64,000 bases of DNA. It comes from a virus. The position numbers were made by a program, and so were the translations under genes. The DNA lies in IMG/VR virus record IMGVR_UViG_3300047368_000327, positions 39,643 to 103,642 of that record, one strand, 5' to 3'. Below, one piece after another: positions 407 through 37,577 of the stretch; the first letter of the stretch is position 1, and each line of letters opens with the position of its first letter. Under the pieces are notes generated by a model. The model did no database searches and was not told where the DNA came from. It worked only from the letters and a program-made list of their open reading frames with translations.

Positions 407-1201
407 ATGTCAAGTGAAAAAATTAAGTTAAGTATTTTTTGCTCGATATTCAAAGGGGCAAAATTTATCCATCATTACCTAGAGGATATAACTAGGCAGA
501 CAATATTCAATCAATGCGAATTAATTTTGATTGATGCGAATTCACCTGACGGTGAGGGTTTAGTAATAAGCAAATATTTAGAAAAGTACGAAAACATAAA
601 GTACATTAGATTGGACAAGGATCCTGGCTTATATGCATGCTGGAATATAGCGATAAAGGAATCCTCAGGACAGCTATTGAATAACGCTAACCTTGATGAT
701 TCAAAAAGAATTGACGCCCTTGAGATTCAATCTAATTATCTTAATGATAACCCCGACGTGGATTTAGTTTATGCAGACAGCCTAATATCTAATTTGATAA
801 ATTGCGATTATGATAAAGCATTAGTTAGCAGTAGGTATAGATATAATTTCCCCGACTTCTCCATAGCTAACTTAATAGATTGTAACCCACCACACCAATC
901 CCCCGTCTACAGAAAGAAGCTTCATGACAAGTTTGGTTACTTTGATGACAACTATAGATCTGCTGCGGATAGCGAATTTTGGCTAAGGTGCGCTTCGGGC
1001 GGATCCAATATGAGGAAGATAGAAGACGTACTAGGAGTTTATTATAATAACCCAATGGGTGTATCAACTAACCCCGGTAACGATGATTGGAAAATCAGGG
1101 AAGAAGTAGAAATCAGGGATAAGTATAAAGAATACGGAACTTTACACAGGGGTAACACTAGAAGGATAATTCACAATATGTCAAACCTCTTATCTTCGTG
1201 A
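407..1201 (+). CDS. Glycosyltransferase family 2
   Basis: GT-A N-terminus (ELILIDANSPDG), GLYACWN, NLDD, and FD..YRSAADSEFWLR motifs. Confidence 0.85.
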   Translation: MSSEKIKLSIFCSIFKGAKFIHHYLEDITRQTIFNQCELILIDANSPDGEGLVISKYLEKYENIKYIRLDKDPGLYACWNIAIKESSGQLLNNANLDDSKRIDALEIQSNYLNDNPDVDLVYADSLISNLINCDYDKALVSSRYRYNFPDFSIANLIDCNPPHQSPVYRKKLHDKFGYFDDNYRSAADSEFWLRCASGGSNMRKIEDVLGVYYNNPMGVSTNPGNDDWKIREEVEIRDKYKEYGTLHRGNTRRIIHNMSNLLSS

Positions 1202-1908
1202 GCCGATTAGGCATTGTGCAACCAGGAAGGCTCGGTGATATAATTATATGTTTACCGATTGCCAAATATTACAATAATTTAGGTTTTGAGGTTTTCTGGC
1301 CAGTTCTAGATGAATACCTACCATTATTCAATAATATAGATTACGTTACAGCTTTACCAATGAAAACAGATATAACAAGCTGCGTCCACCACGCCTATTC
1401 AATAACTAAAGGTTTTGAAAAAATAATCGACTTAAGTTTTGGCTTTCATTATAGCAAGATTCATCACAAATACCACGGAAACGATTCGTTTGCAACCAAC
1501 TTTGTTGAAGCAAAATATAAATTAGCTAACGTACCAATTACTGAAAGATGGAATCTCCAATATCATAGAAACAAGGAAAGGGAAAACAAACTTTTTAATA
1601 AACTGCATCAAGGCTTCAAGTATACCTTGGTTCACGGAGAATCCTCACAAGGCAAGCACGTAAATTTTTCAGGCGATAGTATAATAAAAGTTAGACCTAT
1701 TACTGGATTTAACATATTCGACTGGAGGAAGCTTGCCTTAAATGCAACCAAGATCTACTGCGTAGACAGCTCCTTCTGTAATTTCATTGAGTCTGATAAA
1801 TCTTTTAAAGATAAAGAAAAAATTTACATACCAGCCAAACTAATGGAAAGTAAATGGGGGTGGACAACTCTTGAAAACAATTGGATTATAGATGAGCCAA
1901 ACAAATAA
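1198..1908 (+). CDS. Putative glycosyltransferase (GT9/GT-B-like)
   Basis: QPGRLGDIIICLP and CVDSSF motifs resemble the heptosyltransferase-like fold; lies in the glycan operon. Confidence 0.5.
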   Translation: MSRLGIVQPGRLGDIIICLPIAKYYNNLGFEVFWPVLDEYLPLFNNIDYVTALPMKTDITSCVHHAYSITKGFEKIIDLSFGFHYSKIHHKYHGNDSFATNFVEAKYKLANVPITERWNLQYHRNKERENKLFNKLHQGFKYTLVHGESSQGKHVNFSGDSIIKVRPITGFNIFDWRKLALNATKIYCVDSSFCNFIESDKSFKDKEKIYIPAKLMESKWGWTTLENNWIIDEPNK

Positions 1909-2728
1909 AGGTTTAAAAATTTTACCAATTGAAAACGCTACCCAAGGCTGGTTAACTAAAGAAAGCTGCACTATAGTTGAATGCCCGCATGATGCAGATT
2001 TCATAATTTTCGAAAAAACCGGAGACCCCGAGCTCGAAATCAGGAGGTTAAAACAAAAATTCAACAAACACTTACATAAACTAGTTTTCATATTAAGTGG
2101 TGATATAGATTTCTCTGACAATACATCCATTTGGTTCTGCTCTAGCTTAAAACCGAATCATAAAAACAAATTTCAAATATATACATTAAATCCTAGGGTT
2201 TATAGACTAGACCCCGAATTAAAACCTAAAAAAATAAAAGGATTCTTTTCGGGCACGATCTGGAATACCCCAGAGAGACAATGCTTAAAGAATCTACCAA
2301 ATAACTGGGTTATCGAAGATCGAGACTGGTGGGGCGCAGACGAAAATTCTCAATTAAAACTATCCAAGCATACATATGACATGATGAGAAGTTCTTACTA
2401 CACGTTATGTCCTAAAGGTAAAGGCTCATCGTCCATGAGAGTATCCGAAGCATTAGCTTGCGGCTCGATACCTATATTAATTAACGACAACTCTAATCCA
2501 TTTTGTGAAAATTATGGAGGCATACCTATCAGGATAACTAAAGATGAAATATCTAATGTGAATAATATCATTGACGGCCTAGGAAACCCAAGCGAAAAAG
2601 AGCTGTTAAACTCGTTAATGTTTTATAAATCCAATATCTGTAAGAATAATATTACTACATGGACAATATGCAGTGGTTTTTCTCATAAAATAATATCAAC
2701 CCTTAAATTAATTAAAAGAACAATATGA
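1892..2728 (+). CDS. Exostosin-family (GT47) glycosyltransferase
   Basis: The C-terminal MRSSYYTLCPKGKGSSSMRVSEALACGSIPILIND is the GT47 signature. Confidence 0.8.
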   Translation: MSQTNKGLKILPIENATQGWLTKESCTIVECPHDADFIIFEKTGDPELEIRRLKQKFNKHLHKLVFILSGDIDFSDNTSIWFCSSLKPNHKNKFQIYTLNPRVYRLDPELKPKKIKGFFSGTIWNTPERQCLKNLPNNWVIEDRDWWGADENSQLKLSKHTYDMMRSSYYTLCPKGKGSSSMRVSEALACGSIPILINDNSNPFCENYGGIPIRITKDEISNVNNIIDGLGNPSEKELLNSLMFYKSNICKNNITTWTICSGFSHKIISTLKLIKRTI

Positions 2729-36016: not shown

Positions 36017-36021
36017 ATATT

Positions 36022-36588
36022 ATGCCATTACCATACGATTTTGAACTAGACGATTCCAGACTTTCTCTTCTGGAAAAAATAAAACCAGGAGATGCTTGTG
36101 CAGAGATCGGTGTATTTAGGGGGGACTTTTCCGAATATATGCTCAAGATGGATCCGTCAGAGCTTAATTTGGTTGACCCATGGATCAGCATAATGGACAT
36201 TCCAGCTAGATGGCATGCCATACCTCAAGAGGAAATGGATTCGATAAAAAACGAAGTAAAAAATAAATTTAATTCAGATTCGAGGGTTAACATTTTAGAA
36301 AAATATTCGATTGATGCCCTAGATGACTTCGAGGATGATTCCCTAGATTGGATATACCTTGACGCGAATCACTCCTACTCTTTCATACAGCAAGATCTCG
36401 AGAACTGGTGGAGTAAGCTTAAATCTAATGGCACTTTATGCGGAAACGCTTACCAAGATGACGACGCTCAAATTCGACTACTTGATTTTGGCGTCATACC
36501 AGCTGTCGATTCATTTTTAGAAGACTTTTTTGATGAAATAGAAAATTTTGAAATTATAAAACATCAATTCGTATTAACAAAAAAATGA
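36022..36588 (+). CDS. Class I SAM methyltransferase (paralog of 34884)
   Basis: AEIGVFRG, VDPW, DWIYLDANHSY and WWSKLK. Confidence 0.87.
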   Translation: MPLPYDFELDDSRLSLLEKIKPGDACAEIGVFRGDFSEYMLKMDPSELNLVDPWISIMDIPARWHAIPQEEMDSIKNEVKNKFNSDSRVNILEKYSIDALDDFEDDSLDWIYLDANHSYSFIQQDLENWWSKLKSNGTLCGNAYQDDDAQIRLLDFGVIPAVDSFLEDFFDEIENFEIIKHQFVLTKK

Positions 36589-37577
36589 AAATATTAGTTG
36601 GAGGAGCAGGCGGCTTTATTGCCGGTTATTTAGTTAAAGATTTATTAGCGCAAGGACATGAAGTTATTACTGCCGATATAAAACCGGCAGAACAATGGTA
36701 TCAGACTTTTAATAATGCAGAAAATCATAGTGATTGCGATCTTGGCGAAAAGCATCACTGTTATAACCTATCAAAAGGTGTTGACAGAATTTATAATCTT
36801 GCCTGCAATATGGGGGGCATGGGATTCATTCAAAACAATCATGCCCTCTGCATGGAGTCTGTATTGATTCAAGCGCATATGCTTATGGCGGCTCGAGACA
36901 ACGGCGTAAAAGAAATTTTATATAGCTCTTCTGCTTGCATCTACCCTCAAGAAATTCAATCTGACATTAAAGATGCGGCCTCTCAAGGATTAAAAGAACA
37001 TACTGCCTATCCAGCTAACCCAGAAGATGGTTATGGTTGGGAAAAATTGTTCAGTGAAATTCTTACTCATTATTACGGAGAGGATTTTGGCATTGATTCT
37101 AGGGTCTGCAGATACCATAACGTTTATGGCCCTTATGGTACTTGGCGTGGCGGACGAGAGAAAGCTCCTGCTGCAATTTGCCGTAAAGTTATTGAGGCAA
37201 AAATGAGCGGCAAGCATGATATTGAAATTTGGGGAGATGGAGAACAAACCCGCTCCTTCATGTATATAGATGATTGCGTTACCGGAATGGATTTAATGTG
37301 GTCAAAAGGAGACTCTCGCCCACTGAACCTTGGTAGCGACCAGATGGTATCAATTAACCAGTTAGTCGATATTGCCGAAAATATTGGCAACGTAAAACTT
37401 AAAAGAAATTACAATCTTGATGCGCCACAGGGTGTTCGTGGTCGCAATAGCGACAACGAAATGATTAAAGAGGTTTTAGGCTGGGCGCCATCTATCACAC
37501 TAGAAGATGGATTAGAAAAAACCTATTCTTGGATTTACGACCAGATGCAAAATTGCAGCGATTCCTCAGGCTATTAA
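36585..37577 (+). CDS. GDP-mannose 3,5-epimerase-like protein
   Basis: GAGGFIA, LACNMGGMGFIQ.N, SSACIYP, YGWEK, RYHNVYGPYGTWRGGREKAPAAICRK, WGDGEQTRSF and GVRGRNSDN are GME signatures. Confidence 0.88.
   Translation: MKILVGGAGGFIAGYLVKDLLAQGHEVITADIKPAEQWYQTFNNAENHSDCDLGEKHHCYNLSKGVDRIYNLACNMGGMGFIQNNHALCMESVLIQAHMLMAARDNGVKEILYSSSACIYPQEIQSDIKDAASQGLKEHTAYPANPEDGYGWEKLFSEILTHYYGEDFGIDSRVCRYHNVYGPYGTWRGGREKAPAAICRKVIEAKMSGKHDIEIWGDGEQTRSFMYIDDCVTGMDLMWSKGDSRPLNLGSDQMVSINQLVDIAENIGNVKLKRNYNLDAPQGVRGRNSDNEMIKEVLGWAPSITLEDGLEKTYSWIYDQMQNCSDSSGY

Follow-up and report, generated by a model that had tools for sequence, protein, structure and literature searches.

Can a bacteriophage assemble a complex sulfated glycan with enzymes of its own, and if so, what would carry the product? 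The question is raised by an island of about 37 kb in a 64,000-nucleotide stretch of viral DNA (the window), which is the final 64 kb of the 103,642-bp IMG/VR virus record IMGVR_UViG_3300047368_000327 (the contig). The window has a GC content of 33-42%, and its relevant genes of at least 100 aa all lie on the plus strand. The island comprises 39 open reading frames (ORFs) in two densely packed plus-strand runs, one of nine (window positions 407-8086) and one of 30 (15095-37577), with overlaps of at least 4 nt at most gene junctions of both (Table 1; positions refer to the window unless stated otherwise). A preliminary description had counted about 37 genes in coupled runs. Both runs stand, with 39 ORFs, and they are interrupted at 8198-14877 by genes for the large and small subunits of ribonucleotide reductase (RNR), a NUDIX protein, a papain-like protease and small ORFs. 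We conclude with high confidence that the island is a phage-encoded, cytoplasmic line, dependent on 3'-phosphoadenosine 5'-phosphosulfate (PAPS), for a sulfated, methylated and possibly pyruvylated glycan with fucose and/or L-galactose. By analogy with known viruses the glycan may be destined for the virion surface, a proposal to which we give about an even chance.

The contig is a fragment of an uncultured marine tailed phage with a genome of some 200 kb, in agreement with the phage origin assumed in the preliminary description. Upstream of the island it encodes a 3,322-aa tape-measure-like protein, Phage_min_tail, Phage_tail_L, JAB+NlpC/P60, a 1,806-aa gpJ-like protein and a 1,100-aa fibre, the tail-tip genes being of the lambda type. 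Downstream lie RecA-like, DnaB, primase, PD-(D/E)XK nuclease, PHP, exonuclease, DnaE and ClpB genes, three large proteins without assignment and two fibres with an endosialidase-chaperone domain (Peptidase_S74). CheckV rates the contig 73% complete. There are 71 related loci in IMG/VR, including records of 184-214 kb rated 100% complete. In one of these, G001 (213.8 kb, CheckV 100%), which encodes a large terminase, the segment at 58.6-159 kb is colinear with the contig gene for gene. Were the stretch part of a bacterial polysaccharide locus, or an assembly chimera, this would account for a gene content like that of cellular glycan loci and for a related 14-kb contig binned into a Flavobacteriaceae metagenome-assembled genome (MAG). 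We consider this extremely improbable. Phage genes stand on both flanks of the island in a single contig, a terminase is present in the complete relative, no wzx, wzy or priming genes were found, and the gene order is repeated in at least eight independent IMG/VR contigs and many seawater assemblies; this repeated synteny excludes a cellular origin.

Five enzymes of the island act on sugar nucleotides. The supply claimed earlier was matched by profile or PDB searches for Gmd, Fcl, a GDP-mannose 3,5-epimerase (GME) and a GalE/UXS-like short-chain dehydrogenase/reductase (SDR). The GME assignment is a clear one, with 320 bits to the Arabidopsis enzyme against 92 bits for the next SDR family. The protein previously called UGDH is a short 279-aa form in which only the N-terminal NAD-binding and central domains were matched and the C-terminal UDP-binding domain, the third of the complete enzyme, is missing; G001 keeps this short form (284 aa, 76% identical).

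The sugars would be joined by 18 glycosyltransferases, 12 of which exceed curated Pfam cut-offs and 6 of which were assigned on weaker matches, paralogy or fold. Every transferase family named in the preliminary description was matched by Pfam, GT8 weakly and NodZ/GT23 with two strong matches and one weak. Its 'Golgi-like' label is apt as a list of family names; for GT17, the sole family checked in this respect, the nearest clusters are other phage proteins and not eukaryotic ones. The product of the gene at 34180, which belongs to an undescribed family, folds as a GT-A enzyme in its AlphaFold2 model (pLDDT 96.5), with SpsA (1e-5) and GnT-I (TM-score 0.52) as structural matches, and is a predicted glycosyltransferase. 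The gene at 29834 resembles a single domain of the bacterial chondroitin/heparosan synthases, and its true start is probably further in.

Tailoring enzymes were recovered as previously claimed: five Sulfotransfer_2 proteins, another sulfotransferase recognised by fold (18158), three methyltransferases and one PS_pyruv_trans protein. The five Sulfotransfer_2 proteins score 47.6-72.6 bits against PF03567 (cut-off 22) and cover profile positions 4-252. They are only 24-32% identical to the product of the gene at 17503, yet the HxPKxxG and RNP...S PAPS motifs are invariant in all five, for which reason they look like active enzymes of different specificities. The model of the sixth has exclusively PAPS sulfotransferases as its top structural matches (TPST2, Z 11.5, root-mean-square deviation 3.7, 191 aligned residues; Stf0, Z 11.0). 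This protein, which folds as a PAPS sulfotransferase and is predicted to be one, belongs to a family confined to this phage lineage.

Table 1. ORFs of the two runs, all in window coordinates, with predicted products and the matches on which they are based.
Position	Strand	Predicted product	Evidence and remarks
407..1201	+	GT2 glycosyltransferase, 264 aa	PF00535 44.3 bits; homologue missing in G001
1198..1908	+	236-aa ORF	Pfam and NCBIfam: no match
1892..2728	+	GT47/exostosin- and RXYLT1-like	PF03016 38.2 bits, PF24785 38.2 bits
2725..3300	+	FkbM-type methyltransferase	PF05050 41.8 bits
3297..4274	+	Polysaccharide pyruvyl transferase	PF04230 43.9 bits, full length
4315..5367	+	Gmd (GDP-mannose 4,6-dehydratase)	PF16363 344 bits; TIGR01472 322 bits
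5364..6320	+	Fcl (GDP-L-fucose synthase)	NF047922 426 bits
6339..7250	+	SDR NDP-sugar epimerase or decarboxylase, GalE/UXS-like	PDB 4zrm 2e-46; UXS 3e-40
7247..8086	+	Short UDP-glucose/NDP-sugar dehydrogenase-like, 279 aa	PF03721, PF00984; TIGR03026 173 bits, sub-cut-off
15095..15736	+	213-aa ORF	No family match; G001 homologue 73%
15733..16662	+	Divergent GT2-like	No Pfam match of its own; distant members among 70 homologues have PF10111 or PF00535
16659..17510	+	GT8-like paralogue	phmmer 5e-06 vs 26208 gene
17503..18189	+	Sulfotransfer_2	PF03567 54.5 bits; PAPS-binding motifs retained
18158..18979	+	Sixth sulfotransferase, TPST/Stf0/SULT-type fold	AlphaFold2 pLDDT 86.6
18976..19863	+	GT92 / GT2_4	PF01697 28.4 bits, PF13704 28.8 bits
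19847..20497	+	GT32, DXD sugar-binding region	PF04488 56.9 bits; unique to this phage (absent in 8 relatives)
20494..21075	+	Sulfotransfer_2	PF03567 72.6 bits
21072..21935	+	NodZ/GT23-like fucosyltransferase	PF05830 47.4 bits
21936..22574	+	Sulfotransfer_2	PF03567 59.3 bits
22549..23310	+	GT77 (Nucleotid_trans)	PF03407 62.4 bits
23298..23984	+	Possible GT2-like, weak	PF00535 16.4 bits, sub-cut-off
23972..24442	+	156-aa ORF	No family match; present in all relatives at 88-94%
24449..26191	+	GHKL-type ATPase, 580 aa, mid-island	PF13589 26.7 bits; nearest cluster a phage-common ATP-binding family
26208..26972	+	GT8-like, weak	PF01501 20 bits, sub-cut-off
26969..27901	+	GT90, POGLUT-like	PF05686 92 bits; POGLUT2 1.4e-17
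27874..28734	+	NodZ/GT23-like fucosyltransferase	PF05830 63 bits
28736..29257	+	173-aa ORF	No match
29260..29922	+	220-aa ORF	No family match; conserved, 76-91%
29834..30646	+	GT2 + GT7C	PF00535 75.4 bits, PF02709 39.6 bits; KfoC 9e-20
30637..31443	+	GT17	PF04724 102 bits; closest clusters viral
31427..32167	+	GT2 / CAP59 (GT69-like)	PF11735 28.9 bits, PF00535 26.2 bits; unique to this phage (absent in relatives)
32164..32817	+	GT31 galactosyltransferase-like	PF01762 27.5 bits
32814..33590	+	NodZ-like, weak	PF05830 17.6 bits, sub-cut-off
33587..34183	+	Sulfotransfer_2	PF03567 62.7 bits
34180..34881	+	GT-A fold glycosyltransferase, undescribed family	273 representatives; DD conserved at 84-85
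34884..35426	+	Methyltransf_24 / TylF-like O-methyltransferase	PF13578 70.3 bits
35423..36016	+	Sulfotransfer_2	PF03567 47.6 bits
36022..36588	+	Methyltransf_24 methyltransferase, paralogue of 34884	PF13578 48.5 bits
36585..37577	+	GDP-mannose 3,5-epimerase (to GDP-L-galactose / GDP-L-gulose)	Plant GME 2c59 E 2.5e-94, full length

Glycosylation of modified bases of the phage genome is another conceivable role for the transferases: DNA is a frequent substrate of phage glycosyltransferases (Pyle et al. 2024, as cited in PMC12619734), and the NUDIX gene adjoins the RNR genes. A thymidylate-synthase-like hydroxymethylase (PF00303) was not matched in five records, the contig and four complete relatives, and some 18 transferases, six sulfotransferases and a supply of GDP-fucose and GDP-L-galactose far exceed the known DNA-sugar systems. 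We therefore rate DNA hypermodification as very improbable.

The enzymes are soluble. None in the island has a hydrophobic anchor (Kyte-Doolittle mean of at least 1.6 in a 19-residue window), which agrees with the earlier claim that they lack transmembrane anchors. Using hydropathy as a heuristic rather than a profile search, we found that no protein of the contig or of G001 has more than five hydrophobic segments and that neither encodes a flippase, polymerase or ABC-2 exporter; the claimed absence of wzx, wzy and wzm thus extends, by this heuristic, to a complete genome. The contig encodes a single polytopic membrane protein (45399-46574; 391 aa, 4 hydrophobic segments), which belongs to a gene inside the replication module, and this gene is kept in G001 (401 aa, 5 segments) and G002. 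Priming phosphoglycosyl transferases of the PF02397 (Bac_transf) family were not matched in the contig and four complete relatives, and the hydropathy scan showed no WecA-like polytopic protein.

These results bear on whether the host envelope is the true target. On the cytoplasmic side of the inner membrane, the enzymes could lengthen or supplant a host glycoconjugate, using the lipid A-core of lipooligosaccharide or a host lipid-linked oligosaccharide (for O-antigen, capsule or general protein O-glycosylation) as acceptor. The host's MsbA/Lpt system, flippase or ABC exporter would then bring the glycan to the surface, where it would block superinfection or keep progeny from sticking to debris. 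Such host-carrier routes, MsbA/Lpt for lipooligosaccharide and host lipid-linked pathways for the others, need no phage exporter. Lack of anchors does not discriminate here, since the glycosyltransferases of bacterial envelopes are likewise soluble or peripheral, and mosaic variability of the island (below) is compatible with any exposed glycan. Consistent with envelope remodelling, the island has early or middle-type genes around it, a minus-strand gene conserved in its neighbourhood weakly matches GT9, the heptosyltransferase family, and single sulfotransferase genes and LPS-type genes are known from cultured cyano- and jumbo phages. Against it, the complete genome lacks a priming transferase, flippase, polymerase, ligase and ABC-2 protein, and the product of some 18 transferases would have to suit host exporters that are often substrate-selective. 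Known phage seroconversion systems consist of 1-3 genes, some of them for membrane proteins, and the GT9-like and GT1-like calls near the island are weak, with empty PDB sequence searches. Weighing both sides, we find envelope remodelling unlikely, though a serious contender.

That neither an acceptor nor an exporter was found would also fit a product that is free or loosely bound, namely a soluble sulfated oligo- or polysaccharide, or glycosylated host or non-structural proteins, which would build up in the cytoplasm and be freed at lysis, for instance as a gel, decoy or signal. The combination of NodZ-like proteins, sulfotransferases and methyltransferases resembles that which tailors soluble lipochitooligosaccharides. 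This proposal seems improbable to us, with no processive synthase or NodC-like membrane GT2 found, an unclear benefit to the phage against the cost of about 37 kb and, to our knowledge, no viral precedent.

Comparison with relatives indicates how the island changes. Its proteins are 57-88% identical to those of G001, against 78% for the core protein DnaE and 80-90% for RNR; being conserved as strongly as core genes, the island genes appear to be maintained. In place of the first five genes (407-4274), G001 has at 97.2-101.8 kb a cassette with a GT2, an MptE/DUF115- and CST-I-like protein (sub-cut-off), a CMP-sugar cytidylyltransferase and an HpcH/HpaI aldolase, which suggests a sugar of the 3-deoxy-D-manno-octulosonic acid (Kdo) or nonulosonic acid type, as in flagellin or lipooligosaccharide glycosylation. 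The order of the second run is constant in seven further IMG/VR contigs (flanks 79-96%), with single genes gained or lost and with two allele classes in some genes, such as the one at 32814, found at either 57-58% or 93%. Contigs from marine RNA libraries show indels of a similar kind. In G004 (200 kb) the second run is wholly missing, and the genes for the small RNR subunit and a DnaJ-like protein are followed directly by the homologue of the gene at 37789. From these alignments we conclude that the island is an accessory, mosaic and fast-changing gene block, and such mosaic content is the pattern expected for an exposed surface glycan.

A second cluster, at about 177-189 kb of G001, combines a Methyltransf_24-like gene and ORFs without assignment with six Sulfotransfer_2 paralogues, four of which stand in tandem at 183.7-186.2 kb. 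This genome has ten Sulfotransfer_2 matches in total, and the contig ends before the equivalent region.

These data allow us to propose a model in which the soluble enzymes act in the cytoplasm of the infected cell. GDP-L-fucose would be made by Gmd and Fcl, and GDP-L-galactose or GDP-L-gulose by GME; the short UGDH-like protein and the SDR would probably supply a UDP-uronic or pentose sugar. About 18 single-linkage glycosyltransferases would then build one or more large branched heteroglycans, which six sulfotransferases drawing on host PAPS, three methyltransferases and the pyruvyltransferase would tailor. We propose as acceptor a surface protein of the phage particle (a fibre, decoration or head protein), which would give the particle a variable anionic sugar coat. 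The proposal follows the analogy of chloroviruses, Megavirinae and mycobacteriophages. We favour the virion because no phage priming or export function was found, because of the number of transferases (about 18 distinct ones are several times the need of a bacterial repeat unit, and nearer to the giant-virus glycosylation clusters), because cassettes vary as in the Megavirinae clusters, and because mycobacteriophages provide a precedent.

Several observations weigh against a virion coat. Of the preliminary description's case for one, the phage identity, the soluble kit, the sugar supply of its own and the lack of export genes hold, but no acceptor signature was found on virion proteins. None of the 17 proteins of the G001 head-tail region has a Ser/Thr-rich C-terminal tail, and no mucin-like or Ser/Thr-rich low-complexity stretch is encoded on the contig. 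A proteoglycan-type acceptor at Ser-Gly or Thr-Gly was considered and rejected: the enrichment is real (z 5.5-8.5) but due to structural repeats. In the products of 53348 and 57625 the [ST]G excess sits in a repeat motif that both contain, and in the 1,100-aa fibre it sits in aromatic-x-[ST]-G repeats. The island is placed among early or middle-type genes (RNR, replication), outside the structural module, and G004, which lacks the second run, indicates that this run is dispensable for basic virion assembly. The absence of wzx and wzy leaves host-surface routes available, because host carriers could export the glycan. Contigs from RNA libraries of two studies match island genes, which is no proof of transcription. 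As to the sulfate donor, for which the preliminary description had proposed a search, no ATP-sulfurylase gene was found in five records, and APS kinase (adenosine 5'-phosphosulfate kinase) had no match on the contig, itself about 73% complete, an APS-kinase-like gene being present in relatives only.

That gene (169453-170283 of G001, minus strand; also in G003 and G005) encodes a 276-aa protein with an APS-kinase-like N-terminal half, in which the LGFSxEDR motif is retained, and an HxGH nucleotidyltransferase-like C-terminal part. Its best PDB matches are all APS kinases, and it is a possible minimal PAPS-supply enzyme. The contig stops short of this region.

A more specific form of the virion proposal is that the coat would mimic algal polysaccharides, as a putative sulfated fucose/L-galactose layer that is fucoidan-like or sulfated-galactan-like. 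It would act as bait for the surface proteins by which polysaccharide-foraging marine bacteria capture glycans or, alternatively, would attach the particle to algal mucus and marine snow, the feeding grounds of such hosts, and cassette swaps would retune the bait. We regard such mimicry as highly speculative and improbable.

Viruses that glycosylate their own particles offer the closest comparisons. In the chlorovirus PBCV-1 the major capsid protein is glycosylated by the virus's own soluble multi-domain transferases, independently of the host ER and Golgi; these include an exostosin-like transferase and a methyltransferase domain, and the virus encodes Gmd and a GDP-sugar epimerase/reductase (reviewed in PMC9614988). 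PBCV-1 resembles the island in its virus-supplied GDP-sugars and differs in its eukaryotic host, its far fewer, scattered genes and the lack of sulfation. In Megavirinae, clade-specific glycosylation clusters decorate the virion fibrils, with 12 genes in Moumouvirus australiensis and 21 in Cotonvirus (PMC9614988, PMC10117803), and both clusters contain sulfate-metabolism and papain-like genes (PMC9614988). Like the island, these clusters combine virus-encoded nucleotide-sugar synthesis, soluble glycosyltransferases and methyltransferases, and their content varies among close relatives. The papain-like gene lies inside the two Megavirinae clusters and, in the phage, between the runs (11103). 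The Megavirinae have up to six transferases and rare amino sugars, whereas the phage, a tailed virus with a bacterial host, has about 18 transferases, six sulfotransferases, GDP-fucose and GDP-L-galactose.

Among phages, mycobacteriophages O-glycosylate capsid and tail-tube subunits with their own cytoplasmic glycosyltransferases, forming a glycan shield (Freeman et al. 2023, in the account given in PMC12619734). In these phages, 2-4 transferase genes reportedly adjoin the structural genes, and C-terminal tails serve as acceptors. In contrast, the island has 39 genes beside replication-type genes and adds sulfation, and the G001 head and tail proteins have no such tails. Bacterial O-antigen, capsule and lipooligosaccharide loci share with the island nucleotide-sugar genes, many soluble transferases, methyl and pyruvyl tailoring and cassette exchange; unlike them, the island has no priming transferase, flippase, polymerase, ligase or exporter and is carried by, and kept in, a phage lineage that looks lytic. 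Distant Sulfotransfer_2-type homologues (23-36% identity), sometimes beside a glycosyltransferase, occur in phiRSL1, DLP6 and Synechococcus ACG-2014f, but such cultured jumbo phages and cyanophages have one sulfotransferase per genome and no large transferase set. Full-text literature searches returned no paper describing a phage island of many glycosyltransferases and sulfotransferases. We know of no larger glycan-building kit in a phage.

Five ORFs of the island (1198, 15095, 23972, 28736 and 29260) had no family match. The GHKL ATPase at 24449 is probably not a glycan enzyme; it is 79-92% conserved in eight relatives that bear the second run, and its family of about 395 proteins is mostly viral. 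The 1198 ORF has no similarity to the upstream GT9-like gene. A PDB sequence search returned nothing for one Sulfotransfer_2 gene, the GHKL ATPase, the sulfotransferase at 18158 and two upstream GT-B-like genes. Between the runs, the papain-family cysteine protease (11103-12302) has a hydrophobic segment near its C-terminus, and a 107-aa ORF (12627-12950) has an N-terminal hydrophobic segment running up to a lipobox-like Cys (…FVINCS…), making it a possible lipoprotein; both are absent from G001. From the fibre gene to the island, at 32005-39889 of the contig, runs a conserved block of ten minus-strand genes, including an SSB and the weak GT9-like (402 aa) and GT1-like (641 aa, with DUF4214) genes. 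The block is present in G001, G002 and G004, even where the second run is missing. Directly downstream of the island, a 330-aa protein (38238-39230) has its C-terminal 150 or so residues in common with the C-terminus of the 1,100-aa fibre (28706-32008 of the contig), and its slot is variable among relatives.

Promoter signals were also inspected. A GTGTA motif stands at short, fixed spacing 5' of several starts (6320-6339, 8180-8198, 11085-11103, 24430-24449 and 38220-38238), two of them within the island (6339 and 24449), which suggests internal promoters common to the island and the RNR genes. In the divergent intergenic region at about 248-413, the minus strand carries a perfect sigma-70 consensus (TTGACA, 16 nt, TG-TATAAT), while the plus strand has an 11/12 match that reads towards the island. 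A consensus scan of window positions 1-16000 for promoters and terminators found no excess of sites over shuffled sequence.

DNA almost identical to that of the island turns up in the seawater metagenomes of many studies. A megablast search gave no match to cultured phage, and the best identities with cultured phages are at most 33% for DnaE, at most 28% for TerL and about 41% for gpL. Moraphages (PMC12619734) were considered as the lineage and rejected, as they have a family B polymerase and contractile tails. A ClpB search for the host gave one 76% match, on the phage-like 14-kb contig in the Flavobacteriaceae MAG, and otherwise at most 44% over the full length and 51% for one partial match. 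Shine-Dalgarno motifs before starts were not above chance (13% vs 16%). The low Shine-Dalgarno use and the Flavobacteriaceae-binned relative hint at a Bacteroidota host, with which the perfect promoter conflicts, as it fits a sigma-70-type host better. The morphotype is likewise unsettled: a 922-aa protein (54855-57623) matches the PHROG 'tail sheath' (E 2e-50), despite the lambda-like gpM/L/K/J-type tail module and the 3,322-aa tape measure. On either side of it, large proteins (53348-54853 and 57625-59559) have long, near-identical repeat modules in common (DLHVSGNISGDIISGKTGVF..., SLLISGEPVLTG) and are probably beta-helical fibre proteins, their bactofilin-like matches being weak.

Virus-encoded glycan synthesis is established in giant viruses of eukaryotes and, in phages, is known only on the small scale of the mycobacteriophages. 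If our reading of the island, kept by a widespread marine lineage, is correct, phages could make complex, anionic, strain-variable glycans by themselves, and the sulfated glycans of seawater have a possible viral source. The island also offers, in compact form, soluble members, probably active in the cytoplasm, of GT17, GT31, GT47, GT77, GT90, GT92 and the CHST-like family, the eukaryotic counterparts of which are membrane-bound and hard to study. Should the glycan sit on the particle, adsorption, stickiness and grazing would be affected, as would the reading of viral 'auxiliary metabolic genes'.

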